Origin: Haliotis cracherodii
Taxonomy: Eukaryota
Length of the DNA stretch: 64,000 nucleotides
Assembly: GCF_022045235.1 (NCBI RefSeq)
Contig: NW_027266343.1
Span: 51,488,134-51,552,133, forward strand
Reading direction: 5' to 3'
Positions 35,337 to 64,000 of this stretch are shown one piece after another. The notes beneath the pieces are model-generated. The model did no database searches, had not been told where the DNA came from, and saw only the letters and a list, made by a program, of their open reading frames with translations. Positions within the stretch are counted from its first letter, which is position 1. Each line of letters starts with the position of its first letter. Position numbers and translations under genes: made by a program.

Positions 35337-35371
<35 letters not shown>

Positions 35372-35615: not shown

Positions 35616-35684
35616 CTGGAAAATATGTCCAATGGGTCAGTCACGCTGTTAATATAAATCTTGTTAACATGACTCCTACCCGTG

Positions 35685-35940
35685 AAGATCCGGGGTAGAA
35701 TAGGTCTTCAGCAACCCATGCTTGCCGTAAAAGGCGACTATGCTTGTCGTAAAAGGCGACTAACGGGATCGGGTGGTCAAGCTCGCTGACTTGGTTGATG
35801 CATGTCATCCCACTTGCGTGGATCGATGCTCATGATATTAATCACTGGATTGTCTGGTCCAGACTCGATTATTTACAAACCGCCGTCATATAGCTGGAAT
35901 AGTGCTGAGTGCGGCGTTAACCAACAAACCATCTAACCTT
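35685..35940 (+). mobile_element. SINE family C in an SLC23 intron
   Basis: Body consensus. Confidence 0.75.
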
Positions 35941-36660
35941 AGACATTTTCGTGTCTCTGGTCTGAGGCAATAGGAACTAAATCGACAAAACCCTTTCCAA
36001 GACATGGAAGGACATGCTTCGAGGACAGCATGAGTTCCACAGAGTAGCGTAAAAAGATAACGGTCGTGTTTTCTAATCAAGGACACGAAGACGCCTAACA
36101 CAGGCATTGATTGACGACAGGCAATGTCACAGTTTCCTTGGTCATAGTTTGTATTTACAATACACGGATACAGCTTTTTGAGAAAAGTGCATTTTGTGAT
36201 TTTACAATTTTTGCAACTATCTATATGAACGAATGTTTTATTGTTCAGAATGGACCATTTTGTTTTCATATGGTAAACTCAAAGTCAGTTATCGCTTTTT
36301 GAGACAATGTTAGTTCTATTCAGTGGGATCGAACCTGCAACTCTCGTATCTGTAGTCTGGTGAGTGAACCACTAGGCTAAAGAGCTGCTGATAAATCACA
36401 ATGCTTTTAAGAATCTCATTTTTTCAAGCACATGTTCGCCAGCACGAGATATATTACGTCCGTTTCCTGAGGTTCAAGGGGAGTGTTGGAATATAATTTC
36501 TTTTGATAAAGTTGTTTCAGATTTGTTACGGTTTATAAGACATATATTCTCTCAGGTTTGGTTAATAATATAAACACTAGGGGCCTGCCATCGGGTTTGT
36601 CCATCTCCCCCGTGTTGACATTGTTAACCAAACCCTCGGGTTTGCCCTTTATCTTCTCAC

Positions 36661-36818
36661 CTGATACCGACAACCGTTTGAAGTAGCGTGGTTAAGCCAC
36701 TCATCAGCAGTGTTGAGGAAAGTAGCTTCGATCTGATTGGACTGTCATAAGCTGCGCACACAGCGTCTGAGATGATGAAGGCAGTGGCTACCGTGAAGGC
36801 AAGGTTCATCATGATGTG
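36661..36818 (-). CDS. SLC23A-like: SLC23-family transporter, exon 2 (HIMMNLAFTVATAFIISDAVCAAYD...LLQTVVGIR)
   Basis: Acceptor ccccttgcag| and donor |gtgagaag were read from the sequence. Phase is 0 to 2. The translation aligns to SVCT2 [23 protein letters not shown]...TLLQTTFGCR. Confidence 0.85.
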
Positions 36819-37074
36819 CTGCAAGGGGAAGGAAGTACCAACATCACTTGTTTACTTTGTGTTGTGTTTTGGTTTGTTTGTCAACATTTATATCACGGCG
36901 GTCTCCAAATAGTAGTATGGGTCAGACAAACAGTGATCGATATTATGATCAACGTGCCTCTCTGTCGTGAACGACGACGCACAATCAGCAAAGTTACAGA
37001 GCTTGGTTGGTAAATAGCTAGGACATAGTAGGGACTTAACGCATAATTGCCACTGATGGCGCCACGATCGAGCA

Positions 37075-38334: not shown

Positions 38335-41276
38335 ATAACCAACTCTCTAATGATGAAGTAAGTCACCAGCTCTCTCCAATGATGAAGTAAGTCACCAACT
38401 CTCTCTAATGATGAAGTAAGTCACCAACTCTCTCTAATGATGAAGTAAGTCACAAACTCTCTCTAATGATGAAGTAAGTCATCCACTCTCTAATGATGAA
38501 GTAAGTCACCAACTCTCTAATGATGAAGTAAGTCACAGCTCTCTCCAATGATGAAGTAAGTCACCAACTCTCTCTAATGATGAAGTAAGTCACCAGCTCT
38601 CTCCAATGATGAAGTAGGTCACCAGCTCTCTCTAATGATGAAGTAAGTCATCCACTCTCTAATGATGAAGTAAGTCACCAACTCTCTAATGATGAAGTAA
38701 GTCATCCACTCTCTAATGATAAAGTAAGTCATCAACTCTCTAATGATGAAGTAGGTCACCAGCGCTCTCCAATGATGAAGTAGGTCACCAGCTCTCTCCA
38801 ATGATGAAGTAGGTCACCAGGTCTCTCTAATGATGAAGTAAATCAACCACTCTCTAATGATGAAGTAAGTCATCAACTCTCTAATGATGAAGCAAGTCAC
38901 CAACTCTCTGTAATGATGAAGTAAGTCACCAACTCTCTCTAATGATGAAGTAAGTCACCAACTCTCTCTAATGATAAAGTAAGTCACCAACTCTCACAAA
39001 TGATAAAGTAAGTCACCAACTCTTTCTTATGATAAAGTAAGTCATCCACTCTCTAATGATGAAGTAAGTCACAACTCTCTAATGATGAAGTAAGTCACCA
39101 ACTCTCTCTAATGATGAAGTAAGTCACCAACTCTCTCCAATGATGAAGTAGGTCACCAGCTCTCTCCAATGATGAAGTAGGTCACCAGCTCTCTCCAATG
39201 ATGAAGTAAGTCAACCACTCTCTAATGATGAAGTAAGTCACCAACTCTCTAATGATGAAGTAAGTCACCAACTCTCTTTAATGATGAAGTAAGTCACCAA
39301 CTCTCTCTAATGATGAAGTAAGTCACCAACTCTCTCTAATGATAAAGTAAGTCACCAACTCTCACAAATGATAAAGTAAGTCACCAACTCTTTCTTATGA
39401 TAAAGTAAATCACCAACACTCTCTAATGATAAAGTAAGTCACCAACTCTCTAATGATGAAGTAAGTCACCAACTCTCTTTAATGATGAAGTAAGTCACCA
39501 ACTCTCTCTAATGAAACAGTAAATAACCAACTCCCTCTTATGATAAAGTAAATAACCAACTCTCTCTAATGAAACAGTAAATAACCAACTCCCACTTATG
39601 ATGAAGTAAGTCACCAACTCTCTCTAATGATGAAGTAAGTCACAAACTCTCTCTAATGATGAAGTAAGTCATCCACTCTCTAATGATGAAGTAAGTCACC
39701 AACTCTCTAATGATGAAGTAAGTCACAGCTCTCTCCAATGATGAAGTAAGTCACCAACTCTCTCTAATGATGAAGTAAGTCACCAGCTCTCTCCAATGAT
39801 GAAGTAGGTCACCAGCTCTCTCTAATGATGAAGTAAGTCATCCACTCTCTAATGATGAAGTAAGTCACCAACTCTCTAATGATGAAGTAAGTCATCCACT
39901 CTCTAATGATAAAGTAAGTCATCAACTCTCTAATGATGAAGTAGGTCACCAGCTCTCTCCAATGATGAAGTAGGTCACCAGCTCTCTCCAATGATGAAGT
40001 AGGTCACCAGCTCTCTCTAATGATGAAGTAAGTCAACCACTCTCTAATGATGAAGTAAGTCACCAACTCTCTAATGATGAAGTAAGTCACCAACTCTCTT
40101 TAATGATGAAGTAAGTCACCAACTCTCTCTAATGATGAAGTAAGTCACCAACTCTCTCTAATGATAAAGTAAGTCACCAACTCTCACAAATGATAAAGTA
40201 AGTCACCAACTCTTTCTTATGATAAAGTAAGTCATCCAGTCTCTAATGATGAAGTAAGTCACCAACTCTCTAATGATGAAGTAAGTCACCAACTCTCTCT
40301 AATGATGAAGTAAGTCACCAACTCTCTCCAATGATGAAGTAGGTCACCAGCTCTCTCCAATGATGAAGTAGGTCACCAGCTCTCTCCAATGATGAAGTAA
40401 GTCAACCACTCTCTAATGATGAAGTAAGTCACCAACTCTCTAATGATGAAGTAAGTCACCAACTCTCTTTAATGATGAAGTAAGTCATCAACTCTCTCTA
40501 ATGATGAAGTAAGTCACCAACTCTCTCTAATGATAAAGTAAGTCACCAACTCTCACAAATGATAAAGTAAGTCACCAACTCTTTCTTATGATAAAGTAAG
40601 TCACCATCTCTCTCCAATGATGAAGTAAGTCACAACTCTCCAATGATGAAGTAAGTCACCAACTCTCTCTAATGATGAAGTAAGTCACCAGCTCTCTCCA
40701 ATGTTGAAGTAGGTCACCAACTCTCTCTAATGATGAAGTAAGTCATCCAGTCTCTAATGATGAAGTAAGTCACCAACTCTCTAATGATGAAGTAAGTCAT
40801 CCACTCTCTAATGATAAAGTAAGTCATCAACTCTCGAACGATGAAGTAAGTCACCAGCTCTCTCCAATGATTAAGTAAGTCACAACTCTCTAATGATGAA
40901 GTAAGTCACCAGCTCTCTCCAATGATGAAGTAGGTCACCAGCTCTCTCTAATGATGAAGTAAGTCATCCACTCTCTAATGATGAAGTAAGTCACCAACTT
41001 TCTAATGATGAAGTAAGTCATCCACTCTCTAATGATGAAGTAAATAACCAACTCCCTCTTATGAAAAATTAAATAACAAACTCTCTCTCATGATGAAGTA
41101 AATTACCAACTCTCTCCTTAGATATAGTAAGTAGCAAACTCTCTCTTATGATAAAGTAAAAAACCAACTCTCTCTAACGAAACAGTAAACAACCAAATCT
41201 TTCTTATGAAAAAAATTAAATAACCAACTTTTTCTCATGAAAAAGTAAATAACCAACTCTCTCTCTCTTATGATAA
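38335..41276. repeat. 29/30-bp satellite (about 100 units, aatgatgaagtaagtcaccaactctctct) with a 1190-bp higher-order repeat
   Basis: 38411 onward equals 39601 onward at an exact 1190-bp offset. ORFs 38619-38801 and 39809-39991 are identical artefacts. There is an inner ~368-bp sub-period (ctcacaaatgataaag at 38993/39361 and 40183/40551). The array continues briefly after the SINE at 41553-41575. Confidence 0.9.
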
Positions 41277-41552
41277 AAGGGGGGGGGGGGGGGCACGGGT
41301 GGCCCAGTCGTCTAAGGCGCCGCGATTCGCGTCCCTTGGGCTCGCCAGAAACCTATGATTGTGGGTTCGAATCCCGGTTCGCCCCAATTATGTTTCTAGG
41401 TTTGTCAGCACCATACCCGTGCTCGTGGGTTTCACCGAAGTGGTAAACGTCTGAGACCTGCATCACTTCGGGCTTTCCTCCCACATTAAGCTGACACGCC
41501 GCGATATAACTGGAATACTGTTAAAAGCGGCGTTAAACCCAACTCACTCACT
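41277..41552 (+). mobile_element. SINE family A inserted into the 30-bp satellite
   Basis: A G-run precedes the head. The satellite unit cttatgataaag is duplicated on both sides as a TSD (41265-41276 and 41553-41564). Confidence 0.85.
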
Positions 41553-42007
41553 CACTTATGATAAAGTAAACAAGCATGAAATACTCACATCCCTCGCCAA
41601 TATGACATGTCGGGTTGTGTGCAATGTAAATGGCCTAATTGCAGCACTAAAAAAAGTTATTACTGTCGTTGTTTTTCCATCTGCAGTTTATGATAGAATA
41701 TGTAACTGAATTTGTAATGAGTAAGGATGAGACATATGGACGAACAACTTCTTTATTACAATTAGGAGCGATGGTTTCGGTCAAGCAAGTGAAGTACAGA
41801 GTATGGTTTACAAGAATATATAGTGTTTATACAGTTGAGTAGGTTTAAGATCAGTTACACTGTTGTATTTGTAATGAGTTGTGTTTCTGCATGAAGTTAG
41901 TCAGTGAATGCAACAACTGTGTCCATGACACTTTTGGAGGAACATACACTCAAGCAATGCAGAACTTACCAACAAGAAAGGAAATGTATTCAATACTGTG
42001 AGATGAC

Positions 42008-43870
42008 ATTATGTGCCAAGTTTGGTGAAGAAATATAGTACGGTTTTCAAGATCTGCTCCGGAAACGAGGACTACCGCCATTTTCAGTCTAAATCAAAGT
42101 CGTTGCCATGGAAACTCAAAAAATAAAAAATAAATAAATTCCAAACTATCAAAAGGCACCAGTTCACCGCTAGATCTATCTATCTGCCAAGTTTGGTGAA
42201 GAAATATAAGTACGGTTTTCAAGATCTGCTCCGGAAACGAGATCTACCGCCATTTTCAGTATAAATCAAAGTCGTTGCCATTAAAAACTAAAAAAAACAA
42301 AAAAAGATTAAATCACAAAACTATCAAATAGCACCAGTTCACCACTAGATCTATCTATGTGCCAAGTTTGGTGAAGAAATATGGTATGGTTTTCAAGATC
42401 TGCTCCGGAAGCGAGGACTACCGCCATTTTCAGTCTAAATCAAAGTCGTTGCCGTGGAAAGTCAAAAAATAATATTTTGAAAAATCCCAAACTATCAAAA
42501 GGCACCAGTTCACCACTAGATCTATCTTTGTGCCAAGTTTGGTGAAGAAATATGGTATGGTTTTCAAGATCTGCTCCGGAAACGAGGACTACCGCCATTT
42601 TCAGTCTAATTCAAAGTCGTTGCCATGGAAACTCAAAAAATAATAAAAAATTAAATTCCAAACTTTCAAAAGGCACCAGTTCACCACTAGACCTATCTAT
42701 GTGCGAAGTTCGATGAAGTAATATAAGTACGGTTTTCAAGATCTGCTCCGGAAACGAGGACTACCGCCATTTTCAGCCTAAATCAAAGTCGTTGCCATGG
42801 AAACTCAAAAAATAATAAAAAATTAAATTTCAAACTATCAAAAGGCACCAGTTCACCACTAGATCTATCTATGTGCGAAGTTTGATGAAGAAATATAAGT
42901 ACGGTTTTCAAGATCTGCTCCGGAAACGAGGACTACCGCCATTTTCAGTCTAAATCAAAGTCGCTGCCATGGAAACTCAAAAAATAATATTTTGAAAAAT
43001 CCCAAACAATCAAAAGGCACCAGTTCACCGCTAGTTCTATCTATCTGCCAAGTTTGGTGATGAAATATAAATACGGTTTTCAAGGCTCAATGCCTTGGTT
43101 AAATTTTCTAAATAGCAAAAGGCACCAGTTCAGCATGACAGACCTGCAAAGTTTGATGAAAAAATATTGAACGGTTTTTGAGTTATGCAGCGGAAACAAA
43201 CCCTACCCTCACAGAACCTAAGTCCAACTTGTTGCAATGAAAACGTAAAAAAATTTTTTTTATAAAATTCCTAAATAGCAAAAGGCACCAGTTCAGTATG
43301 TGCCTAGTAGACATGCAAAGTTTTGTAAGAAAGTATTTAACAGTTTTTTAGTTATGCTCCGGAAACGAACACCACGCTTATAGAACCTAAGTTCAACTTG
43401 CTGCCATGGAAACGTAAAACATAAAAATTTATAAAACTCCTAAATAGCAAAAGGCACCAGTTCAGTATGTGTCTGGTAAACATGCAAAGTTTTGTAAGAA
43501 ATTATTTAACGGTTTTTGAGTTACGCTCCGGAAACGAACAACACCCTTATGGAACCTAAGTTCAACTTGTTGCCATGGAAACGTAAAACATAAAAATTTA
43601 TAAAACTCCTAAATAGCAAAAGGCACCAGTTCAGTATGTGTCTGGTATACATGCAAAGTTTTGTAAGAAATTATTTAACGGTTTTTGAGTTACGCTCCCG
43701 AAACGAACAACACCCTTATGGAACCTAAGTCCAACTTGTTGCCATGGAAACGTAAAACATAAAAATGTATAAAATTCCTAAATAGCAAAAGGCACCAGTT
43801 CAGCATGAGTCTGATAGACATGCAAAGTTTCGTAGAGAAATATTTGACGGTTTCTGGGTTATACTCCTGA
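42008..43870. repeat. ~175-bp satellite, two diverged subfamilies (alpha 42008-43080, beta 43080-43870)
   Basis: Alpha units start gccaagtttggtgaagaaatat at 42015, 42189, 42363, 42533, 42704, 42871 and 43047. Beta units start ctaaatagcaaaaggcaccagttcag at 43108, 43270, 43440, 43612 and 43780. Both share aaaaggcaccagttca, ctccggaaacga and gttgccatggaaac. Confidence 0.85.
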
Positions 43871-43877
43871 AACGATT

Positions 43878-43957: not shown

Positions 43958-45064
43958 CGGACGGAACCGATTTTCTATCTCCCCCGCCAACTCCGTTGGG
44001 GCGGGGGATAATGATCGTGGCACATTAATTTTATCGGTGTACGATAAAAAGCGGGAAATGTTACTATTTTTCAACACAGAAAAAATTCTCGGAGAACACT
44101 TAGACGTGTCTTTGTTAAAACCGGTTTAATAATTGCAGTTAAATTTACACCATCAAATAGGAAATTTAATATTCTCCACATCTGCGTAATTTTATAGCCA
44201 GAGGTATATCCAGTGCCGCGTGAGCGCAATTCTCGCACAACCTTCACTTTTCCGATCTTAGGAAAATGTGCGTCAGCAAAAAAAACCTCGGCATCCATAG
44301 AGAATACTACACCCATTCTCGTTAGATACAATTTTTATGAAACGAGTGGACTTCCTATGGTATCTGACCGAGCGAATGAGTGTGGCATTTTATTTATTAC
44401 CAACGTTAAATATATATTTAGGTGTAAATACATAACAACTTTCGTTCGTTGGCAGAACAAACTGAAACCGGTTGCAAAATCTGGTTGCGCATGAATATTG
44501 ATATATGCCCAAATATGGGCATTGTTGACATTTCTGTGCATACGTATTAACAACATGTTCCTGCTGTTGTGATTGCAAACGTAACAGCATCGACGCTCAA
44601 GATCCTTTTGGAACAGTTTCTTCAACGTATGGTAATGCAAGCGCCATGTTGTAAGTACGCAGGACACCTATAAGAAAATTTGAAAAGACACATTTGCGCC
44701 GCGCTTTGAATATCGGACCAACAGTCGGTCACTCGCACTGCCGGGGTATTTAAAATGGCTCGGTTTCCTTGATCTATCAGCTAAATTTATATCCGGTCCG
44801 TACCATTTTGAAAGAGGGAATTCAGGGTGTTCGCCAAAGACATTCATCTTAACTGTACCACCTTGTACTGAAGTCGTGAAAATCAACAAACTTAAGTCTG
44901 CTTGCATGTCAGTGACAGCTTCGAACGAAGGGCAAGGTCAACACCGGAATAAGAAAAGACAACCGTGATCTACTTACAGCGTTTTGTGCTAGAGACAGGG
45001 AATGTTATTGTTCACATTTGGGATATTTTGGTCCACATAGCCAGAAATCAGACACACGTAAAAG

Positions 45065-46681
45065 TGGAAAATTGTATGCTATATTTGTAGATTTTTCGAA
45101 AGCATTCGATTCAGTCTGTAGAGATAAGTTATGGTATCTATTTAATTCACATGGTGTCAGTAATAAAATGGGTAAATTGTTATGTGGTATTTATAAGGAA
45201 GTTAAATCATGTGTTAAACAAAACGGCATGTATTCAGATTCTTTTATATGTCATACTGGTGTACGCCAAGGATGTGTATTAAGCCCTTTTTGTTCTGTTT
45301 TTTTTTATATTATTAATGAGCTTGCAGCCCAAATCAAAAGAAATTATGATGATGGTATACAATTACATCCTGAACTTATAAAAATATTTATGTTACTATT
45401 TGCAGATGATATAATCATGTTCTCGAGTACTGTAAAAGGTTTACAAACTTTGATAAATCAGCTAGAATTGTACTGTGATACGTGGAAACTTAATGTTAAT
45501 CTAGATAAGACAAATATTGTTGTATTTAGCAAGAGAAATACGCCGTCAAAAATTGAAAAGTGGTACTTTCGGGGACAATTACTCCAAACTGAAACCTCAT
45601 ATAAATATCTTGGTGTAATATTTTCAAGTAAATTATCATGGAACCGACATATATGTAATGCAGCAATACAAGCTAAAAAGATGCTTTTGGGCATTTTACA
45701 AACGTTTGAACATTTTAGCGAGTGTGCTTATAAATCTTTCTTCAAAATCTTTGACACAAAAATAACTCCTATTCTTTCCTATGGCTCGGAAATATGGGGT
45801 TTTGCAGAGGCTAAAGAAATTGAATCCGTACATTTATACGCATGCAACAGATTTCTTGGTGTTAAACATAGTACGTCTAACGTAATGGTTTATGGTGAAT
45901 GTGGTCGCATGCCCTTGTATATATATTACTTCTTAAAAATCATAAGATACTGGTTAAAATTACTAAAAATGCCGGTAGGTAGATTGCCAAAATAATGTTA
46001 TAATATGATGCTATTGTATGAAAAGAATGGAGATCAAAATTGGGCATACAATGTTAAATGTCTACTGTATAAATGTGGGTATTGTTACATCTGGGAAAAC
46101 CAATGTTTCTTAGAGAATCATGCCATGTTCATATCGAAAATAAGGCAGACGCTTTTTGACATGTACTTTCAAACATGGAGATCTACTGTAGATGTTTCTA
46201 ACAAATGCGAATATTATAGATATTTTAAAATGCAAATATGCACAGAAAAATATTTAACTGATGTAAATATAAGAAAATGCAGAATATCATTAACACAATT
46301 TAGATGCAGCTCACACAGGTTAATGGTTGAAGGTGGCAGGCACAACAAAATACCCAAATGTTTAAGATTATGTAAACAATGTTCTTTAAATGATGTCGAA
46401 GATGGCTTTCATTTTCTACTTGTATGTTGTAAAAATGATAATTTAAGGAAAAAATATATTGAACAGAAATACTATGTACATCCAAATAAATACATGTTTA
46501 TCTCTTTAATTTCACATGTGAGCAAAACGGCTACACAAAATCTCTCTCTCTCTCTTTATATATCATGCCATGTTATTAAGATATGAATCCTTGTAACATT
46601 CCTAACCGCTTCCACATTGTCATGTATTCTGTACTATTGGCCGGTGGCCTTACAGTTATATATGAATAAACTGATTGATTG
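45065..46681 (+). mobile_element. LINE fragment (5'-truncated RT with FADD motif plus C-terminal Cys/His domain) nested in the YR-element composite
   Basis: ORF 45018-45995 contains YAIFVDFSKAFDSV...VRQGCVLSP...LLFADDIIMF. ORF 46005-46586 is the C-terminal domain. The flanks are contiguous in the copy at 63.06-63.10 kb, so this is an insertion, with the short direct repeat gacacac at both junctions. Confidence 0.75.
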
Positions 46682-47617
46682 ACACACTTCTACGGAGTTT
46701 TCGAAAGATTTGTATCAGAAATGTTCTTTGTTCACTCAGTGATCTGGTCGTGCAGTCGTGAACAAACAACTCCCGAAACAGTGCCACAAAATACGCTTCG
46801 AAGGGGACACTGATGATACAACCGGATCATCCCAAGTTAGTCTAGATATCTGCCCAGATAGCTTAAACTTACTTCATTTCACCAAGCTTATCCTTTTACG
46901 TTAAATCAAATTGACAGTTGCGAAGGTGGTCGGGTGCGTCACGCTCATGGGGACCCTCGATCTATTGATCGTACTTTGTAAATTTTATGGATATAGCTCG
47001 ATTATATAATGTCTGTAAAAGCTCTATGCATAACTTATACAGAACGCAAACCGAATTTGATGCGTGTGACTATCTTGTTTGGTTTAATAAAGTGTTTGTA
47101 AATATCTCACGCTCTCATGAGAATGCTTCAGTTCTGCGTGCCTTGTTGTTGCAAAATGAATGACGTCTCGCGATTTTGTATGAATGACAAAAGTAGTACC
47201 GGTGTGACAGAGGTCACGGTTATCCAATCAAAACGAATTAAACAAGGTCAACCTTGTACGATACATGTGTGACCTACGGATTTAGTATCTTACCACTTGT
47301 ATCTTCACCACGTTGGTAATAAATATAGAATACTACACTCATTCTCGTTAGATACCATAGAAAGTTCACGAGTTTCGTAAAAATAGTATCTTACGAGAAC
47401 GAGTGTAGTATTTTATTTATTACCCACATTTTTATGGACGAAAATAGCGTTTTCGTTACTTTATACGCCAAACGCAAACTGGCTCGAACTCTGGTTGCGC
47501 ATGAATAGTAAAATGCCCAAATATAGACATGCTAACTTATTTACGCATTGGTAAATAGTTCCTGTTGTTTGTGTATGAATAATTGACAATACAGCTCATG
47601 CCAGGAAATAACATGAT

Positions 47618-48600
47618 TCATGATTTGTACAGTGCAACTGGACATCGTGGGTCGTTGGTAGACCATGCACGGGGAGGCGCGTCACGGACATTACGTGTGT
47701 CATTGCCTGTGCGTGTCTTTGTTTGACGTTCATTGTACTCAATGAACTCTCTACCATCAGAGTCGAGTTTTAGAACTACATCTCCCCACCTCATCAAGTG
47801 ATGAGGTTTTACACTTCGGAGACCAAAGTGTCTCGTGTTATTCCACCATAGTGTGTTGAGAATGGATTCTGGGTTATTAGGACCCAATTCGTTTGCATCA
47901 AACATCATGTTGATTTCATCATTGGACAGACTTTCGGCCCTATTTGGTAAGTTTCCTCGCCCTTCTCTTTTTAGAACTTTTTGTTTGGTTGACAGGACTT
48001 CGCGAAGTTTTGAAAACTCACGATCCTGCAACAAGGACTTGTCATATCCCCTTGATTTTAGAAATCTGTCAATACTTGATAGCTTTGATGTAAAAGAGCT
48101 TGGTTCATAGTCCTGGCCGTTAGATTTCTTTATCAAGATGAAAAAGCTACACAATACATCGCATAATTCATTTGGGGGTATGGTTTCAACCGGCCTAGAA
48201 TCAGCGTTGGCGTTCATGAATTTCTCATAATACTTATGTCATATTGGGTTTTTCTCCAGGTGTTTTGATTTCGATTTTGATGTATGAAATTGTCAATGTT
48301 TGAACAGTCATACTGATACACATTGTCACCTGGTATATCATCAAAAAAGTCATCCTTAAATAGTTCCTCATAGACACATTCTGGAACAGTGTCAAATGGG
48401 TTTAAAGCGGATATAGGGGCCGACGATACAGTCTTAGGAACAACAGTAAGTCTATGCCGTCCTACTTGCCTCATTTCACCATTCAGAGTTTTGATATTGT
48501 AGGCATTGAATGTTCCAAGTGGTTGAACAATAGAAAGCACCCGTCCTCTAACGTCTCCGTCAATTTTGACACAATCGTTAACACGAATAGTGGTAGCCAT
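47618..48600 (-). CDS. Tyrosine recombinase-like ORF (Crypton/DUF3504-type N-terminal domain + Box I Arg + beta-hairpin Lys; C-terminal catalytic half missing; one frameshift at 48214-48217)
   Basis: ORFs 48214-48600 and 47618-48217 carry ...GQDYEPSSFTSKLSSIDRFLKSRGYD...LPNRAESLSNDEINMMF...LWWNNTRHFGLRSVKPHHLMRWGDV...YNERQTKTRTG. The pattern matches the SAM-like plus core-catalytic N-terminal half of Crypton/DIRS YRs and the DUF3504 domain, from memory. No HxxR...Y follows before the hairpin. Confidence 0.45.
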
Positions 48601-50382
48601 CTTTCGATCTGCGCTAATATTTTAGCAAACGATCGTGCGGGAGATGCTGGTTAAAAAAACAAAACACCATTTCGTGTCATGACATGTATTAAAATTGGTT
48701 GTGATTGTTTGTAAATGTCTCTCGTTTTCACGAGAATCCTACAGTTCTGCTTCGTAGTAGTAAAGAGTTGTGAAAGCGAATGACGTCTCGTGATCGTTTA
48801 TGAATGAAAAAAGTAGTTCCGGTCCAATCAATAAAACGAGGTCAACCTTGTACGACACACGTGTGACGTACGGATTTAGTATCTTACCACCTGTATCTTC
48901 ACCACGTGGGTAATAAAATAGAGGATTCATCATGAGTGTTTTTTAATATGGGAAATATCAACCGAGTCTTAGTTAATCGGTATTTGCCGAGCCTTTAGCC
49001 AATCAACGAATTAAATGTTCATGCATGGTGATGGGACCGGGCTACTAGTATATGACGTCATGCTGTGCCCGGGATGCACGAGGAGTGACGTAATGCATGT
49101 TTCTTACACACCTGTGGGTGAGAAACCCATTTGAGATAACTGGTATCAAATATATGTTTCAGATCGAATTCCAGGCCCGTGATTGGCTACTCCATGGTGA
49201 TGACCTGAGGTCAGATGATGACGGACTACTTTCCTGAGTGTAAGACATTCAAGTTTCACGTGCTTCAGTCGAATGTTCACCTACGTCTGTATTGAACCAC
49301 AGGACCGTGTGATTTATAATAAAAATAAACTCATCCTCGTCTGCGAGTTTGATTGTTATTATCATCAGTTACATTACCTGTTGTTATGTCAACGTTAACA
49401 TTTTTTCGGGTGTTAACTTCCTGGATGCCACAGCGACACGTGTGTTTCCTCTTCAACACTCACTTCGAAGTCGAATAAAATTCAAAATACATCACGCAAA
49501 CTAATACACAGCACAGTTTTGAATTCCCCCTTCTGTTTATCATTTACTGTCATTTTAGGCAAAGCACATTTACTAAAAGTGACTTCTAAAAATTAGGTAC
49601 ATCGTAAATCTCGTCAAATCACAATTCACGGCGTTATTAACTGTGTGTTTAGAAAATCTAAATATCGGATATTTACTCGAAAAAATAAAGTAGAAAAATA
49701 GCATATTAGTGATGACGGGCATCAAATCACTAATGATAATTCTTCAACGTCGCTGATAAGCCTAGAATCGTTTAGAGTGTTTGGGAAAATACGCATACAC
49801 GAACGCCGAAGTGTACGTTCCGCCATATTGGATTGTGTTTACAAAATGCCGGTTATGAGACGCCTATTCGATCAAGTATATTTCAAACTCAGCTGCTATA
49901 CATGCATCCCTGAATTCCTCATACATTTGAGAAACAAATGACAAATGGTCTTTGCCACCAATGCAAATTATCTAGATGAAATCATACGAAATAAATTAGG
50001 TATGGAAACGAAAACTGTTCTCGGAAAACTGTAAATAAAGCAAAATTCAGATTTTAACACTGTGTTGAGGTACTTTCGGCTAATTTTTGCATACATTGGC
50101 TCGATCGCGCGTTTGAGAATAATCATGGGAAGAGCATCGTTGCACTAAGCTAGTATGGAATTACACATGTATACATTACAATGATGTGGTAAATTCAACA
50201 GAAGCCGTAAAAGTTTCCGTCCTGTGTGACGCCATGACTGACGCTAAATCACGCAGAACGATGACGGTAGTTATCTGCATTTCTGACTAATTCTCTTTGT
50301 TACATTCGAAAACATGGTAAACAAATAACAGTACGCAGATTGTCAGAATGTTTCTGATTACTTACGTGACACATTTATGTAT

Positions 50383-51885
50383 ACTCACACGCAAAAGAAA
50401 CGCGAGTCGAGTATGCAGTATACATGTTATTTATTTTCAACAGTAAAGACAAGAAATACTAATAGGGCAAGATTGACAAAAATTTGACTGAAGACAGTTT
50501 AATGGATTAAAAGGCAGATGACATAATTGGTTTTTTTTGGCTTACGCAGTTTCGGGTCAATACCCAAAATGTCAGTCAATACCTGGTGTGACCACCATTA
50601 GCATTGATCACTGCCACACGTCTCCTGTACATTGAGTGGATCAGACGATTTGTGAAGGCCCTAGGGATCCTCCTGCACACATCCAGAGCAGCTGTGCGTA
50701 GTTCATCGGCAGTTGTAGGGACTGGGCGCACAATGTGCAGACGCCTTTGAACCTCACCCCACAAGTGTTCGATTGGGTTCAGATCAGGGCTGAGGGCTGG
50801 CCACGGTAGATGTTGTGTTGTTGCAGAAAGGCCATGGTAGCTCTGGCAACATGGGGACGAGCGTTGTCCTGCTTAAAAATGTGTTGTTGATGTTGTGCAA
50901 AAAATGGCACAACGTGGGGTCTGATCACTTGGTCGATATACCGCTGAGCAGTGACGCCGTGTCCCCGACCTTAACCAACATTCAGAAAGCACATGGGTCC
51001 AAGTCTCGCATTAAGTCCAATCCCTGCCCATATCATGACGCTAGGTCCACCCCATGGATCCCTTTCCACAACGTTTCTGTCAGCGAAACGATCACCTCGA
51101 CGCCGCCAAATTCTGACTCTTCCGTCTGCATGGGAGACACAAAAGCTACTTTCAGAGAAGATGACACGCCTCCACTCACGATGACGCCAACTGCGATGAC
51201 CCTGTGCCCACTGAAGTCGTGCTTGTCGATGCTGTGGTTGGAGAACAGGACGACGTGCTGGTCGGCGACATCAGAGGTTGTTGGAACGGAGACGTCGGAT
51301 CACAGTGTCCCGGCTAATGTGTCGATTATGTGTTCCTATGGTCTGTCGAGCACTTTCACTTGCATTTAGGAACAGATGTCGCTGGTGTTGACGGGTAACC
51401 TGCCGATCTTGTCGAGGTGTGGTGACCCTATGACGACCGCTCCGAGGAAGGTCATCTGTGGTCTGTGTAGCATTGTATCGATGCAGGAGACGGTAAATTG
51501 TGGTTATGTTAACTTTGAAATGACGGGCAACATCTTGGACAGACTCTCCAGCTTGCAAACGTCCGGTAGCCTGCATGAGTTGGGCGTGGCATTGTTGACC
51601 AAGGAGTGGTAGGTCCAAGAATCGGCCACAGTTTTATACCCACAACAGGTCGTGACAGTTCGTGCATTTTCGATTTCGCGAGAAATGGTTGCATGATACC
51701 CACATATTCATTGACATGGTGCGTTTGGGCGATTCGTTTTCTATGTTGCGTTTTTTACTCGGGCCAAAAATATTGATAACACCATCAGGCTTCACTACAT
51801 GCTAAAACTCGTATAAATTTATGGTTCCGTGTTTGTTACCTATTTGCTTAAAACCACTTGCGTTTCTTTTGCGTGTGAGTAAATA
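50383..51885 (-). mobile_element. Tc1-like DNA transposon with about 26-bp TIRs and a decayed transposase
   Basis: TIR tatactcacacgcaaaagaaacgc at 50383-50406 matches the reverse complement at 51860-51885. Minus-strand ORFs give an N-terminal HTH (51618-51271, ...HFKVNITTIYRLLHRY...RSGR) and a C-terminus ...AVINANGGHTRY (50764-50576). The middle is frameshifted. Confidence 0.75.
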
Positions 51886-52574
51886 TACGATCCCTCAATC
51901 AACGGAAATCCTCCCCTGGGAATCCCGCGGACTGTTGTCAGTGAACACGCCATTTTGTAAAAGTCGGTCGTCGGTAGTGATGTCATACGGAAGTAAACAT
52001 TTTTGTACATATTTGGTAATTTCTTTGAGGCGTAAACTTTTTAACTCGGCATCCGGCGTGTTCTTTGTTTTTGTCTAGTTTGCATTATCATCATCGCCTT
52101 GATAATCCACAGATATGTCGGAAACCTTTTTGTGTAGGGTCACATTATTTATGAGTAGTAAGCAGTACATAGGATGACGTCACTTATGACAGTGGTGTTA
52201 TGTATTAGTGGGCTACTGCAATCATGAGAATAGACAAATTGCATCGGTTCGATCCTAAAAAGGTGCGATTTTAGGGTGTGTAAAAAAACACATTACTGAA
52301 CTCCAATCTCATTAAAATCAGATCTTAGTTTTCGTTACCGCTAAACAAAGATCTGAGGACATCCCATTACGGGTCACGTCAGACCGACCTTGCGAGAACT
52401 TTGACTGACCAATGGAATGACCAATCAGAAGGCAGCTTTCACTTTGATTACTGAAAACGACTTCTGAAAATTAGGTACATCGTACATTTCGCTACATCTC
52501 GTGTGTGTTTTGAAATTAGCGAAATTTGAAGTAGCGAACATATTGCAAAGTTGTACCCGTGCTAATATACACTT

Positions 52575-52731
52575 GAAGTAAGACGAGTTCTATGGATGAA
52601 CAACTTCTTTATTACAATTAGTGTGACGTTTCGGTGTATCCTATTGCTTGATAAAGGTGTTAGGATCTACACCGAAACGTCGCACTAATTGTAATAAAGA
52701 AGTTGTTCATCCATAGAACTCGTCTTACTTC
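52575..52731. repeat. Near-perfect 64-bp-stem palindrome (hairpin/foldback copy of a dispersed repeat)
   Basis: gaagtaagacgagttctatggatgaacaacttctttattacaattagtgtgacgtttcggtgta, a 29-nt loop, then the reverse complement with 1 mismatch. Single-arm relatives lie at 15740-15800 and 41738-41800. Confidence 0.8.
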
Positions 52732-54654
52732 ATCACTCCAACTTCTAAATGCCACTGAAAGAAGTAATATACACTTGTCAGAGTGCTACACGAAGCTTGT
52801 GATTACCATTTGTCAAACTTCCATTTTTGTCCCAGATGGGACTCAAGTCCAAAAATTACTAGGGTTTGCACTTTACAGAGAGAGTTTTATCCCAAATATG
52901 ACATTTGTTACTTTGTACTTATTTATGTTTGAAATACTCTTTACCATCAAAGTTAGAAGAAATAGGGGTGATTATGGTATTTACATGAATGGAAACCCAA
53001 GATGAAACTATTTCTATATAGTTTGTTTGACTGAACTTCTCGCATCTACATGAATGTCACCAGAAGACCACGTGCACCAATTGTAGTACTGGGCAGTAAC
53101 ATGATGTACACTGCACCTGCAGGTTTATGAACATGCTTATAGCCCTTGAAAGATATTTCTTATTATGTTCAATGTGGAATCCGGTTAGTATATATACTGT
53201 TTCTGCTTCATGTAAAAAAAACACTTGATTTGTTAATTATGAACATTTGTTTTAATTATTCCACAATGTCTACTGTACTTTTGATATTTTCGTACACAAC
53301 TGACTAGATAAATGTTTCATGGCAAAAGAGTTATACTTTGAAATATGTCTTGCCTGCTTTTGAAAGCATTAATAAGGCCATTGTGTTACGCACAATAAAT
53401 TTAAATTTAAATGGGTTATCTACAAGTTGACCAATATCTTTTTTTTTAATCTGCAGAACATTAGTTTAAAATAACCAAATATCAATATTTTAAAAGAAGA
53501 CAACTATTTTCTGGACTCACATACATGTCGTCTGCTACAGAATAGCTTGTGGTCATTAATCAGATGTGACACACCGGGGAAGCTGGCAAGAGCACCCCTG
53601 CTGATAGCGGGAGTTTTGGGGGGACTGGATTGCAGTTAGCTGTTCCTCACTTTGAGGATTTCAGAGACCCTTATTCCACTAAGTGTAGTGAAGAAACACA
53701 GCTACTCACCAAATGACAAGAAATCCGCCTGTTCAAGACTCGGTGCCTGACACAGATCGTGCTGTGTTGTTTTGTTTCTTTTAACCTAGTTTCAAGGATG
53801 TTGAGAGACAACACTGCCAAGCGTGGGACCGTGGGAGTGCCTGCAAGGACGAACTTACTAGTCGATAAATATTTAAGCGAAGTCTTCCGCTGCTAAAACA
53901 GGGGAGTGAGAAAATTACATTATCGGTTAGTACTTCTTACCAAAGCGAAGAATCCGCTGCGAGTTTTAGGTCATTCCCCGATAAGCACGTTTTGTTTTAT
54001 CGGGCTGTGGTCACGTGTAAACAAGATAAAACACGTGGAGTTATGTAAGATATACAACCGTTGTAGCATGTCACAGCGTCAGAGAATGTCTATTATACAA
54101 CTTTATAGGGTCTTATAGTCACGTGTTATTGGTGAGCGTTTGAAAACGTCCATAAGAGCAACAGGCCGTTATCAACATCTCCCGATCGAATCTCATTTCA
54201 CAGCACGAGTTCACTTGATTCGCACTTGGTGTCGAGTAACTTCACGTTAATTCAGTATCGTCGCGCTATCGCCGTTTGAATCAACTATGTGAATTATATG
54301 AATTATGTCTTGTACCCATTTAATGAGGACGATTTTGTTAGACTTTGTTTAGTATGAAACAATGTATTTTATTGTAATCTCACACTAAAGGGTTCAGTAC
54401 CATAGAGACACTGGTCATGCGTTCTGTCGCATAAGTTAGTTATATTAATGTAAATGGAACCTGCGTTAGTGCGAAGCTAAACAACAACAAAAACAGGATC
54501 AAGTGCATAACTCACGAACAAATGACTCACAGCTGGACGAATGACAAATCAATTACACAGTCACGTTGGCCATGTCAAGGGGAGATAAATAGCTAGCATG
54601 TATTTATAATGCAGGTGTGTTATGCAGGCAGATAACTCGAGTGAAATATATCGA

Positions 54655-54740
54655 TAATACTACACTGGTTCTCCTTAGATACCATTTCTACGAAACGAGT
54701 GGACTTTCTTTGGTATCTGACCGAGCGAAAGCCACACACC
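54655..54740 (+). repeat. Solo copy of the YR-element hairpin module
   Basis: atactacactggttctccttagataccatttctacgaaacgagtggactttctttggtatctgaccgagcgaaagccacac matches the hairpins at 44290, 47320 and 63780. Confidence 0.5.
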
Positions 54741-55639: not shown

Positions 55640-56215
55640 ACCTTTCAAATGAATCACGAATCCATTTCTTTGACAGGAAACCATCTCGTCGTTATTATTT
55701 TCTCGACAAGAAACCATTTCGTCGGCAATATTTCCTCGACAAGAACCCATCTCGTCGGCATTATTTCCTCGACAAGAAACCATCTTGACGGCATTATCTC
55801 CTCGACAAGAAACCATCTCGTCGGCATTATTTCCTCGACAAGAACCCATCTCGTCGGCATTATTTCCTCGACAAGAACCCATCTCGTCGGCATTATTTCC
55901 TCGACAAGAAACCATCTCGTCGGCAATATTTCCTCGACAAGAAACCATCTCGTCGGCATTATTTCCTCGACAAGAACCCATCTCGTCGGCATTATTTCCT
56001 CGACAAGAACCCATCTCGTCGGCATTATTTCCTCGACAAGAAACCATCTCGACGGCATTATCTCCTCGACAAGAAACCATCTCGTCGGCATTATCTCCTC
56101 GACAAGAACCCATCTAGTCGGCAATATTTCCTCGACAAGAACCCATCTCGTCGGCATTATCTCCTCGACAAGAAACCATCTCGTCGGCATTATTTCCTCG
56201 ACAAGAACCTGCTAT
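55640..56215. repeat. 33-bp tandem repeat (catctcgtcggcattatttcctcgacaagaacc), about 17 units, inside the long-TIR element
   Basis: Direct reading. It generates ORFs 55397-56218, 55574-56113 and 55654-56190 on both strands. Confidence 0.9.
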
Positions 56216-57268
56216 TGATGTGTTTGTTTAACGAAATCTCAGTGACCTTTCATCTTAGTCCGTTCCTGTTGTGCAAGTCATTGTGGGGTACTGAGTTTGG
56301 GTGACATTTGTTGTTCCTGTTTCGTCTTCTGACACGTTTTCATGGTCCTTGTGCGGCTAGCGTGGAAGTTTTCCGTCAACATTTTATTCCATGTAAGTGT
56401 CGTGTGTCGGATACGAAATGTATGCGAGTCTCGGTAGTTTTTGTTGTACTATTCTCTCATGAAACCCTATCCAACGTGAGATACTTTAAATGTTACCGTA
56501 ATTGACACATAGGTTGGTGACATATCACCAGTGGGGACAGAGTGTTTGGGGTTATTTGACCTAGCATCCAGTGCAAGGCCACCAGGGGTGCCAAGTTTGC
56601 AAGGTGCGCACTGTTGGTGGCGCACAGAGAATTGATGATGAATAAGGGGTAACAGCATCACTGTGGTCATTTATAACAAGATATCCCGATACATCTATTC
56701 CAGCTGAGGGGTATAGGTTGGGTTTAATATCTGAAGTTCACCCGGAGAGAGGGGTCAGGTAGAGAAGAATTCCTGAGCACATGCCATGGTTTCTTCTTTG
56801 GGCAGTCTACTATTGGGGAAGGGCCAGGTTTCGGTGATCTATTGACGAGTTCAAATGTTGTGGAGGGGTTAAAGGTATGACGCTAGCCATCTGGGCATAA
56901 CCCCTGCTGTGCTGAGTGGCACAAGGATCTCTGAAAACCTCGAAGTGAGGAACAACTAACTGCATTCCTATCCCCACCCAGAACTCCCACTATCAGCAGG
57001 GTCCTCTTGCCGGCTACCCTGCGGCGTCAAGCCGATTAATGACCACAAGCTCTTCTGCAGCAGATGACAGGTGTGTGTGTGTGTGTCCAGACAATATTTG
57101 TCTGATTCTATAATATTGATGTAAGTTTAACTACTTTCGAAACATTTATGTTTCTTAACTAAGATTAAGTAACCATTTCACTACATCCTGTCAAAAAATG
57201 AAGCCATCAATATCAGTAGCATTTGTTTCCATGTCTATCATTTTAAACAATAAATACCCCTTCATCCT

Positions 57269-57440
57269 AGTGAGTTAGTGAGTGAGTATGGTTTTACGCC
57301 GCTTTTAGCAATATTCCAGCAATATCACGGCGGGGGACACCAGAAATGGGCGTCACACATTGTACCCATGTCAGGAATCGAACCCGGGTCTTCGGCGTGA
57401 CGAGCGAACGCTTCTACCACTAGGCCACCCCACCGCCCCT
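57269..57440 (-). mobile_element. SINE family B, full length
   Basis: TSD ccttcatc(c/t)t on both sides. Confidence 0.85.
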
Positions 57441-57462
57441 CCTTCATCTTAATCAACCGTTA

Positions 57463-57603
57463 AGTGAGTGAGTGAGTGAGTGAGTATGGTTAAACGCCGC
57501 TTTTAGCAATATTCCAGCAATATCACGGCGGGGGACACCAGAAATGGGCTTCACACATTGTACCCATGTCGGGAAACGAACCTGGGTCTTCAGCGTGACG
57601 AAC
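57463..57603 (-). mobile_element. SINE family B, head-truncated, in tandem with the 57269-57440 copy
   Basis: A (gtga)n tail followed by gtatggttaaacgccgcttttagcaatattccagc...gggaaacgaacctggg. Confidence 0.75.
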
Positions 57604-58748
57604 GGCCCAACCATTGACATTTTATGTATAATAATATCATCAAATATGTAATATTGATCGGTTTTTGTGTCTACAAGAATGTATGTATGTCTGTATATAT
57701 GAATCATAATGTTTCGTCTTTACAAAATTGCATCTGTCCCGTAATGGAATGTTTCTGCAATAAATATTATCTTATCTATCTATCTTATCTATGTTCTGCA
57801 GATTAAAAAGATATTGGTCCACTTGTGGCTGAACCATTTGGATTTTCGTTCATTGGGAGTAACACAATTGCCTTTCAAATGCTTTTCAAAGCAGGAAGCA
57901 CATATTACAAAGTATAAATCATTTATCATGAAACGTTTATCAAGTCAATTTTGTACGAAAATATCAAAAGTACCACGGTAGACATTGATGGATCATAAAA
58001 ACAAATGTTCTTAATTAACGAATCAAGTAGATTTTTTGTGTTTTGGGGTCTTTTTTATTGTTGTTTTTGTTTTTGTTTTTACATGAAGTAGAAACAATAA
58101 ACTGGATTCAACATTTGACATAATAAGAAATATCTTAAGAGTCCTACTACCGTATTCATACCCCTGCAGGTGCCATGGACATCATGTCTCTGCCCAGTGC
58201 TACTATTGATGTTCGTGGTCTTCTGGTGATATTTATGCGAAGGCGAGAAGTTCAGTTAAAACGAACTATATAGGAACATTTTTATCTTGGTTTTCCTCAC
58301 ATGTAAATACCATGATGCTACTAAATTACTAGTCTGCCTCACAGAACCTGAACCTTATTTTTCTTCTGCCTAGCCCTAACTGTAACGATATAGCCCTAAA
58401 AATGAAGCAAGTCTACAATTTTCCAAAGCTGAATCTCTCATCTCAGTTTGGATCTCTTTCAATTTATTGGAGTTATGGTTTCTAACAAAATTAATGTTGT
58501 TGTTTTTTTAGACTAATAGACACTGGCCTACACCATCAGTGCCATAATGTAAACAACTCGGACCAGCTCGCCCCTGCCTGCCTGTTTTATTGGGGGAACA
58601 ACTGATAATATCATGGTTCATGAGTATCAGGTTCAGTGAGAAAAAATGGAGGGGGGATTGCTGGCCGGGAGAGGTCTGGCTTGTGCAACAAAGTGTGTTG
58701 TGAGTAACTTACTGAACCCTGCCTTGGAGTGTAGTATAACCTCCCCTA

Positions 58749-60899: not shown

Positions 60900-61400
60900 C
60901 CAGAATCAATGTCACAAAATACGCTTCGAATGGAGACACTGATGGCACCATCGGAGCATCGAACGTAAGTCTAGATATCTGTCTAGATAGTTTAAACTGA
61001 CTTCATTTCACCACGCTTAAGTTTTCGCGAAAGTAGTCGGGTGCGTCACGCTCATTGGGACCCTCGTTCGGTAGACATTGCATATGGATATGCATGGCTC
61101 GATTATATAATGTCTGCAGTAGCTCTATGTATAACTAAATTAATGCATTGCGAATTTAATGCTTGTGACGATCTTGTTTGGTTTAATAAAGTGTGTGTAA
61201 ATGTATGTAGCTTTCGTGAGAATCCTTTAGTTCTGCTTTGTAGTTGAGAAAGCGAATAACGTCTCGCGTCCTTTTTAAGTATGAAAAAAAGAAGTTCTGG
61301 TGTGACTGAGGTCACGATTATCCAATCAATACGAATAAAACGAGGTCAACCTTGTACGACACACGTGTGACGTACGAATTTAGTATCTAACCTACTGTAT
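60900..61400 (+). repeat. Solo copy of the YR-element ~0.5 kb direct repeat
   Basis: gtcacaaaatacgcttcgaatggagacactgatgg...gtcgggtgcgtcacgctcattgggaccctcg...ggtcaaccttgtacgacacacgtgtgacgtacgaatttagtatct is collinear with 46780-47300. Confidence 0.6.
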
Positions 61401-61689
61401 CGGTCTCCTCCCATTAGTAAGACAGCCCAGCTGTGAGACACCTTAAAACAACAATGTCATACCTGGTTGCACAAGTTAATCAGGTAATTAACCCCTATCA
61501 TGAAAATGGACTTGTCTCATTATAGACAAAAGAAATGACTCAAGATGCTTGATACCCTCTTTTACTTTATTTCATTCAATATTTTAATTCATCCATCCCT
61601 TAAATACATTGTTTTAACATATTCTCCACTTAGAGTTCAGTTAAAGTTAATATCACAGTTCACATCACAGTTCACATCGAGGGTGTCAC

Positions 61690-62839: not shown

Positions 62840-64000
62840 TTTAATTTGTATCTTCACCACGTGGGTAATAATTCGCTTTATTACCCACGTGGTTAAGATA
62901 CAGGTGACGCATCCGACCACTTTCGCAATTTTCAATTTGATTTAACGTAAATGGATAAGCGTTGTGAAATGAAGTCCCCATCGACGCGTATTTTGTGGCA
63001 CTGTTTCGGGAGTTGTTGTTTGTTCACGAGTGCACGACCAAATCACTCAAAGTGAACATTTCCGATACAAATCATTCGAAAACGCAGTAGAAGTGTGCCT
63101 GACTTCTGAGTATGTGGCCCAAAATAGCCCAAATGTGAACAATAACATTCCTTATCTTTAGCGTAAAACGCTGTGAGAAGATCACGGTTGTCTTTTCTCA
63201 TTCCGATGGTGACCTTGCCCTTCGTTCGAAGCTGTCACTGACATGCAAGCAGACTTTAGTTTGTTGATTTTCACGTCTTCAGCACAGATTGGTACAGTTA
63301 ACACGAATGTCTTTGTCGAACACTCTGATTCCCTCTTCCAAAATGGCACGGACATGATATAAATTCAGCTGATAGATCAAGGACACCGAACCATTTTGAT
63401 TGCACAGCCGGGACACCGGCAGTGCGAGTGACCGACTGTTGGTACGATATTCAAAGCGCGGCGTTAATGTGACTTTTTAAATTTTCTTATAGGTGTCCTG
63501 TGTACAAACAACATGGCGCTTGAATTACCATAAGCTCAGGAAATTCTTCCAAAAGGATCTTGAGCGTCGGTGCTGTAATGTTTGCAAACACAACTGCAGG
63601 CGCATGTTGTTAATGTGTATGCATAGAAATGTCAACAATGCCTATATTTAGGCATGTATCAATATTCATGCGCAACCAGATTTTGCAACCAGTTTCAGTT
63701 TGGTCTGTCAACGAGCGAAAGTTGTCATGTATTTACACTTGAATATATATTTAACGTGGGCAATAAATAAAATACCACACTCATTCTCGTTAGATACCAT
63801 TTAGAAACAAGTGGTCTTTCTATGGTATCTGATCCAGCGAAAGCGAGGTCAGATATCATAGAAAGTCCACTCGTTTCGTAAAAATCGTATCCAACGAGAA
63901 TGAGTGTGGTATTCTCTATTTATTACCCACGTGGTGAAGACACAGGTGGTAAGATACTAAATCCGTACGTCACACGTGTGTCGTACAAGGTTGACCTCGT
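62840..64000 (-). mobile_element. Inverted, internally deleted copy of the YR-element (direct repeat with ~330 bp deletion + body + hairpin + direct-repeat end), running off the window
   Basis: 63080-63830 is the reverse complement of 44290-45064 and continues into 46682-46760 without the LINE. The hairpin is at 63780-63900. 63900-64000 is the reverse complement of the direct-repeat 3' end. A palindromic junction tatcttcaccacgtgggtaata/tattacccacgtggttaagataca lies at 62845-62900. Confidence 0.55.

Follow-up and report, generated by a model that had tools for sequence, protein, structure and literature searches.

The palindrome and its surroundings

The window, i.e. the whole 64,000-nucleotide stretch of Haliotis cracherodii DNA that was analysed, is rich in transposable elements (TEs), with many SINE-like repeats carrying (ACTC)n tails and several satellites. 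Exons of a gene of the SLC23 / xanthine-uracil permease type, the only host gene that could be recognised, are located on the minus strand at about 28584 to 37000, with the most 5' recognisable exon at about 36.8 kb. The open reading frame (ORF) at 28581-28997 was matched by short ORF fragments annotated as PF00860, at no more than 73% identity, and further SLC23-type exon-like segments were recognised by eye in ORF segments at 28.6-30.6, 32.0-33.8 and 35.6-37.9 kb. The palindrome described here lies upstream of this gene, at least 15 kb from its most 5' recognisable exon. A reverse-transcriptase ORF at 45018-46586 (plus strand; RVT_1, E = 8e-23) and an ORF at 47618-48600 (minus strand, E = 1e-11) harboring DUF3504, a Crypton-derived domain, point to a candidate autonomous retroelement nearby. 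Within the window, no sequence similarity was found between this candidate and the short repeat that forms the palindrome.

Several other repeats and hairpins surround the locus. A remnant of a Tc1/IS630-type transposon occupies 50376-51887 on the minus strand, bounded by 32-bp terminal inverted repeats (50376-50407 and 51856-51887, 91% identical); its frameshifted transposase pieces match DDE_3 and HTH_Tnp_Tc3_2 just under the Pfam cut-offs. Starting 240 bp to the right of the hairpin unit is a large, old inverted repeat with arms of about 0.7 kb (52971-53683 and 56912-58316, 73-80% identical). Its right arm contains two SINE copies (57269-57604), and a tandem array of sixteen 33-bp units lies mid-way (55664-56207). 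A foldback-type element and an inverted segmental duplication are two possible readings of this structure. A recurring hairpin with arms of about 32-34 nt, ATACYACACTCATTCTCGTTAGATACCAT..., is found at 47325-47416, 63771-63913, 54645-54732 and 44297-44376. It is associated with inverted repeats of 374 nt and 241 nt (44374-45057 versus 63093-63786) that flank the reverse-transcriptase ORF region, and probably represents a terminal structure native to a transposable element. A shorter palindrome at 62847-62902 has 25-nt arms (96%), a 6-nt spacer and a CACGTG core; at 48888-48917 there is a relative with only one arm, inside a repeat shared with 47093-47329, 61192-61401 and 63911-64000. Satellites include a 29-bp array at 38343-41264 (CTCTCTAATGATGAAGTAAGTCACCAACT, about 103 copies) with a higher-order spacing of about 170 bp, which contains the 12-mer TGATGAAGTAAG, and a 22-bp tandem array at 12564-13701 (AAGTGGATGGATGTTCGTGGTG, about 52 copies), which produces an extreme local GC skew of 0.56. 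Two adjoining related satellites with units of 172 bp and 169 bp (about 6 and 4.6 copies) are followed by a (CA)n run at 42010-43875. Finally, long homopolymers were observed at the edges of SINE-like copies, including C31 at 35340-35370 and about G15 at 41280-41294. The surroundings of the palindrome are otherwise ordinary TE-rich, probably intergenic DNA.

An inverted-repeat search of the window identified the palindrome as two arms, 52574-52638 and 52668-52732, each of 65 nt, 98% complementary and 29 nt apart. The search thus reproduces the palindrome reported in the preliminary description, including its single mismatch and 29-nt loop, but the limits given there (52575-52731, with a 64-bp stem) fall 1 nt short on each side. 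The sole mismatch of the arms places T52624 opposite G52682, and becomes a G-U wobble in RNA of the plus strand. Inside the 29-nt spacer, TCCTA (52639-52643) forms five extra pairs with TAGGA (52661-52665), preceded by a 2-nt bulge, TC, at 52666-52667. The total stem is therefore 65 + 5 bp, and the effective hairpin loop is about 17 nt once the spacer pairs are counted. The predicted folding energy of the plus-strand RNA is -121.9 kcal/mol, versus -34.7 +/- 3.9 kcal/mol in shuffled sequences (z = -22). The minus-strand RNA folds at -114.1 kcal/mol (z = -21.5) and the DNA hairpin at -78 kcal/mol (z = -20.9), and in each of these three tests 0 of 200 shuffles folded as well. The hairpin ranks top among the short-range inverted repeats in the window, where the only longer inverted pair, with 73-nt arms at 90% and 199 nt apart, is made by two SINE copies.

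A dispersed repeat inserted into a copy of another repeat

The derivation of the palindrome from a dispersed repeat, proposed earlier together with single-arm relatives at 15740-15800 and 41738-41800, was borne out. Both relatives are real and at the loci given, but nhmmer extends them beyond those spans, to 15686-15809 and 41699-41793. The first, c15, is an older single copy without an inverted arm at 15681-15805 (plus strand; nhmmer E = 2e-32). The second, c41, is likewise an older single copy without an inverted arm, at 41685-41789 (plus strand; nhmmer E = 1e-20), and is devoid of about 20 nt corresponding to GTAGATCCTAACACCTTTAT. At 52.6 kb, one unit of the repeat (about 121 nt) spans 52644-52764 on the minus strand, when written in the sense of the 15.7- and 41.7-kb copies, as delimited by nhmmer, BLAST and a flank match. 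It is placed by nhmmer at 52762-52640 (E = 2.5e-36), and pairwise BLAST aligns 15700-15804 with 52748-52644 (E = 1e-13). The arm region of c15 is 70% identical to the 52.6-kb copy. A hidden Markov model (HMM) built from the three copies matched nothing in the window apart from them and the extra arm. No second arm was detected by nhmmer near c15 or c41, which confirms that within the window the relatives are single-armed and only the 52.6-kb copy is a foldback. The repeat unit measures about 125 nt and the family comprises three members in the window, and the boundaries of the family are approximate because of this small number. Beyond about 125 nt, flank-to-flank alignments of the three copies were no better than shuffles.

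Read in the plus sense, the 3' ends of the three copies (GAAAGAAG, CAAACAAT and CATAAACT) are rich in A or purines, without poly(A) or a clear simple-repeat tail; in the opposite sense, the repeat element ends in (CAAG)2. No tRNA was found in the window, and the whole window gave no match to Rfam at gathering thresholds. When the hairpin and c15 were compared with Rfam at E<=10, only sub-threshold matches to hairpins or snoRNAs were obtained, which are structure-driven or due to chance. A consensus fold common to the three copies was not found either (-1.1 kcal/mol). Since no tRNA-, 7SL- or 5S-like (Pol III-type) head was found in the repeat, we refer to it as a retroposon-like repeat and not as a SINE. 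No partner LINE sharing the tail of the repeat is present within the 64-kb window, and searches for further copies with family patterns returned 0 matches in two metagenome scans, one prokaryotic-genome scan and one viral scan. Target-site duplications were also looked for around the older copies. The candidate at c15, 9 nt long (ACCAGATGA/ACTGAATGA, 6/9 identical), has p = 0.33 when positional slack is considered, and none is demonstrable at c41. The retroposon status of the repeat thus rests mainly on the 52.6-kb copy.

Other affiliations of the repeat were considered and rejected. Inspection by eye revealed no CTRR terminus followed by T, as in a Helitron end, and Rfam gave no match. CUGAUGA-like and GAAAC motifs, as in a hammerhead ribozyme, were recognised by eye on opposite strands, and Rfam again gave no match. 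Kinship to the 29-bp satellite through the 12-mer TGATGAAGTAAG has p of about 0.02 for the 52.6-kb copy only, with nothing for c15 or c41, and is probably a chance resemblance.

At 52.6 kb, an exact direct repeat (13/13), TAATATACACTTG, abuts both ends of a 189-bp unit that extends from 52576 to 52764. Its left copy is at 52563-52575 and its right copy at 52765-52777, both on the plus strand. It was matched in 0 of 5000 shuffles, and the 13-mer is absent elsewhere in the window, even with one mismatch allowed; AGTGTATATTA... had been spotted on both sides of the insert during polarity tests. From 52767, the sequence to the right of the insert belongs to another repeat family, which has a copy at 29.1 kb. 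In this copy (29098-29180, plus strand), the corresponding sequence CCGTGC-CCATTTACACTTG-TCAGAGGGGTACAC is uninterrupted and aligns across the junction without gaps, the equivalent of the duplication being at 29115-29127. When the 52.6-kb flanks are joined with one 13-mer, CCGTGC-TAATATACACTTG-TCAGAGTGCTACAC, they align gap-free to 29109-29180 with a local score of 34, and BLAST across the joined junction against the 29.1-kb paralog gives E = 7e-8. The 30 nt to the left of the junction are identical to the paralog at 20 of 30 positions, ungapped. Among 127,942 window positions, this left-flank match is reached only by 29098 and by the locus itself, and at 29098 it is exactly collinear with the right-flank homology. 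The empty site is paralogous, being located in another copy of the host repeat, and not orthologous. Together, the perfect 13-bp duplication and the paralogous empty site identify the 189 bp at 52576-52764 as an insertion that interrupted a copy of another repeat and left a target-site duplication of 13 bp. The preliminary description took the palindrome as the unit; the unit proper is this duplication-flanked 189-bp insertion, with the inverted arm abutting its boundary.

Structure and origin of the inverted arm

The insert is organised as target-site duplication, inverted 63 nt, fold, direct unit and target-site duplication. The right arm (52668-52732, plus strand) is an internal segment of the repeat unit, collinear with c15 and c41, and its homology extends on both sides. 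Between this arm and the duplication lie a further 32 nt of the repeat, 52733-52764, which are not palindromic. Homology to c15 goes on beyond the outer end of the right arm (p = 0.0026). The spacer, or fold of the hairpin (52639-52667, plus strand), contains native repeat sequence at 52644-52667, with the terminus ...TTGCTTGA, and matches c15 in the minus sense at 19/24 positions (p = 0.0002). In the corresponding controls, the outer flank of the left arm and the plus-sense spacer have no homology to the family copies (p = 0.87, 0.81 and 0.28). These comparisons show that the right arm and the spacer are native and that the left arm is derived. The 63 nt of the left arm that belong to the insert proper (52576-52638, plus strand) are the reverse complement of 52668-52730 except at 52624, and are a copy of the interior of the unit, with the right arm as the original. 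At the mismatch site, C (in a CpG) is present in the right arm, c15 and c41, and T in the left arm. The one difference between the arms is a CpG>TpG transition in the derived arm or an error made there by the polymerase.

The inverted copy exactly fills the interval between the terminus of the repeat and the upstream duplication. It starts at most 5 nt from the position where the three family copies lose homology (...TCAAGCAA). A short quasi-palindrome, TCCTA/TAGGA plus GTA/TAC, sits at the fold, and GA is absent from the left arm next to it, which creates a 2-nt gap. At the other end of the arm, TG (52574-52575) forms both the last 2 nt of the left duplication and the outermost 2 nt of the left arm, i.e. 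a 2-nt junction microhomology. The flanked unit does not end in inverted repeats (AAGTAAGACG... versus ...CTGAAAGAAG), and AAGTAAGACGAG... and ...CCACTGAAAGAAG are not complementary.

The recent origin earlier suggested for the foldback agrees with the comparison of its arms. These are identical at 64 of 65 positions (98.5%) versus 64-75% identity between family copies over the same stretch. The near-identical arms and the perfect 13-bp duplication thus indicate that the insertion is much younger than c15 and c41. From three-point distances, about 6 positions per 65 nt set the 52.6-kb copy apart from both other copies, all but one of these private differences being common to both arms, and in 4 columns c15 and c41 agree while both arms differ. 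Because the private differences are common to both arms, the source lineage appears to have diverged already. The 52.6-kb copy may thus come from a diverged source lineage, or may be older than the perfect duplication suggests.

Target-primed reverse transcription (TPRT) is the insertion mechanism of LINE and SINE elements. Cut-and-paste transposon superfamilies produce duplications of short, fixed lengths, to which 13 bp does not fit. The 13-bp duplication, the absence of terminal inverted repeats and the dispersed short family thus argue for TPRT rather than cut-and-paste transposition. The duplication is within the variable range of about 7-20 bp of TPRT retroposons, and an empty site, albeit paralogous, is present. 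For L1, target-site duplications peak at 14-16 bp and measure 10-17 bp in cell assays (PMC2912911). The inverted arm abuts the insertion boundary, which points to an origin during insertion and not to an unspecified recent inverted duplication. The explanation that we favour, with moderate confidence, is therefore a TPRT insertion of a short retroposon-like repeat whose inverted copy was made during integration, by snap-back or twin priming. The TPRT machinery, the polarity of the RNA and the timing of the foldback, during integration rather than before or after it, are what we infer here.

According to this proposal, a retroposon-like repeat of about 125 nt would have inserted by TPRT into the copy of the other repeat, creating the 13-bp target-site duplication. 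About 63 nt of the interior of the element would have been copied a second time, as reverse complement, and attached to its 5' end. This may have occurred by two routes. By snap-back, the 3' end of the completed first-strand cDNA would fold back and prime DNA-templated synthesis. By twin priming, the second target end would prime internally on the same RNA while the first cDNA runs to the RNA 5' end. By either route, the new end would then be joined to the upstream target through the 2-nt microhomology (TG), yielding a ready-made hairpin of 65 bp + 5 bp, and the 2-nt gap in the left arm by the fold would need a polymerase slip at priming or a later deletion. The sequence fits both routes, and both would make the plus strand the RNA sense. 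With the inverted copy taken as the mark of the 5' junction, the 5' end of the RNA would be CUUGCUUGA..., near 52644, and the 3' end ...CUGAAAGAAG / ...CTGAAAGAAG, at 52764.

In L1, the two segments of a twin-primed insertion usually derive from neighbouring stretches of the RNA, and their junction shows a small deletion or duplication. In the insert, by contrast, the inverted segment repeats 52668-52730, a stretch that the unit also contains in direct orientation. It is the complete duplication of a directly oriented sequence that results in a hairpin. Such a duplicated segment fits twin priming only if the first cDNA reached the 5' end of the RNA; with an RNA of about 125 nt fully copied by the first cDNA, twin priming would give an inverted duplicate and not a simple inversion. 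In other respects the insert resembles twin-primed insertions of L1, mRNA and Alu sequences, with a 10-17-bp duplication, an inverted 5' and a non-inverted 3' segment, and 5' junction microhomology of 2-5 bp, here 2 bp (PMC2912911, PMC2837659). About 70% of twin-primed 5'-inverted insertions have 2-5 bp of 5' microhomology, and 5' inversion is very rare in short elements, with one inverted Alu in the human/chimp set (PMC2912911).

Snap-back 5' junctions have been observed in TPRT by R2 protein, also after full-length cDNA synthesis (PMC11371274, PMC11331408). As in these junctions, reverse-complemented element sequence is fused to the insert's 5' end on the side of the upstream target, which is thereby joined to element sequence in antisense orientation; the fusion would follow full-length cDNA synthesis. 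The fold lies at most 5 nt from the family terminus and the outer end of the arm is at the duplication, which agrees with snap-back as defined for R2 (PMC11371274). The R2 cases are engineered, site-specific rDNA insertions in human cells, detected in reads, whereas the insert arose naturally, is fixed or at least assembled, and consists of a short non-autonomous repeat at a site outside the rDNA. On this reading, the hairpin end belongs to the by-products of reverse-transcription-based insertion that are rare, though already known.

The source element could instead have been hairpin-bearing already, as a subfamily with an inverted 5' extension of which the locus is a faithful new copy. The entire 189-bp unit, including the hairpin, sits between the duplications, and the private changes common to both arms (4 columns) fit a distinct source lineage. 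We nevertheless consider this improbable, since no second hairpin-bearing copy is present in the window and the 2 nt that the inverted arm shares with the duplication at its outer end are what a junction made on site should show. The arms of an older master would also be expected to diverge unless constrained or homogenised.

A mutation after insertion appears doubtful to a similar degree. A template switch in replication (four-point type 3-2-1-4), or snap-back synthesis in the repair of a double-strand break (SD-MMEJ / polymerase theta), would have copied 63-65 nt of the resident repeat. Such events generate perfect inverted repeats in one step, from fragments of tens of bases and up to 83 (PMC5453318, PMC10710096, PMC5728401), and template-switch mutations of type 3-2-1-4 are a source of de novo hairpins and miRNAs (PMC5453318, PMC10710096). 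The insert is similar in that a perfect inverted repeat arose in one step from adjacent sequence, with a fragment length inside the reported range. The quasi-palindrome TCCTA/TAGGA plus GTA/TAC at the fold and the private substitutions common to both arms also fit such a mutation. Template switching is however independent of transposon boundaries and makes no target-site duplication, whereas the inverted copy fills the gap from terminus to duplication exactly. Its start within about 5 nt of the repeat terminus and its end at the duplication edge would be a coincidence of a few per cent, by uncalculated estimate. Our first model was of this kind, with a clean templated insertion of 62 nt between TAC and AG after the repeat had inserted, and with the family sequence running on into the left flank. 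After excision of these 62 nt, the collinearity of the ancestral sequence past the arm is not significant, with p = 0.07 for c15 and about 0.5 for c41. The model was superseded when the target-site duplication and the empty site were found.

An assembly or sequencing artefact, i.e. a chimeric foldback read in the consensus, is very unlikely. Foldback chimeras are known in library and long-read data, but the arm is short (63 nt), lies amid unique sequence left and right, and stops at a target-site duplication for which the paralog supplies the empty site. A CpG transition and a gap of 2 nt distinguish the arm from its template, and the loop consists of native repeat. A DNA transposon of the MITE or foldback type, of which the single-arm copies would be broken halves, would account for a long inverted repeat that derives from a repeat family and is flanked by a direct repeat, but is contradicted by the asymmetric unit, in which the palindrome stops 32 nt short of the right end and the ends are without inverted repeats, and by c15, which stays collinear across the spacer and beyond the arm's outer limit; with a 13-bp duplication atypical of DNA transposons and no degenerate second arm near c15 or c41, it has next to no probability in our view.

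Potential for small RNAs and significance

The insert showed no coding sequence, no known RNA family and no function, and ORF segments of at least 35 aa between about 51.8 and 53.2 kb gave no match to Pfam. Perfect hairpins in general are fragile or recombinogenic, and are possible small-RNA precursors; hairpins derived from MITEs or other TEs are known as such precursors. The insert resembles the latter in being a long TE-derived hairpin that could yield small RNAs if transcribed. It differs from them in that it has no terminal inverted repeats, and in that the hairpin is not a substrate of transposition. If transcribed, it would form a long perfect double-stranded RNA hairpin.

A working small-RNA locus (hpRNA/endo-siRNA or miRNA-like), kept by selection, would be consistent with the very stable fold of the hairpin on both strands and with the mismatch that becomes a G-U wobble in plus-strand RNA. 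We regard this as very unlikely. No Rfam family matches the hairpin at threshold; the matches are sub-threshold only and to plant long-hairpin MIR families, the best being plant MIR2606, with 64 bits versus a gathering score of 140. Animal pri-miRNA stems are preferably of about 35 bp, and the near-perfect stem of 65+5 bp is about twice the canonical pri-miRNA length (PMC10710096). A canonical animal miRNA precursor has an imperfect stem of about 35 bp and a loop of at least 10 nt, or matches a known family; the hairpin has no such stem and no such match. The near-identity of the arms is explained by their youth, and the setting is TE-rich, at least 15 kb from the recognisable exons of the SLC23-type gene. 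In the explanation favoured here, the hairpin is a structural by-product without demonstrated function.

A perfect, transcribable hairpin of about 70 bp, formed in one step by snap-back or twin-primed insertion, would give small RNAs matching the retroposon family, and might thereby seed an hpRNA/endo-siRNA (eventually miRNA-like) locus directed against that family, a proposal to which we give only a slender chance. If true, such a self-directed hairpin would represent a route to de novo small-RNA genes that is distinct from template switching and from MITE hairpins.

With a TPRT insertion as its probable origin, the palindrome becomes a dated, mechanistically readable event, namely a natural, sequence-resolved case of a very short element whose 5' end bears an inverted copy of the element. 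Junctions of this type are documented mainly from engineered R2 insertions and from L1, and are rare in short elements. If the repeat family is still active, this copy would give its exact ends, its target site and the rules of its junctions. The locus is also an example of how retroposition can deliver ready-made hairpins.
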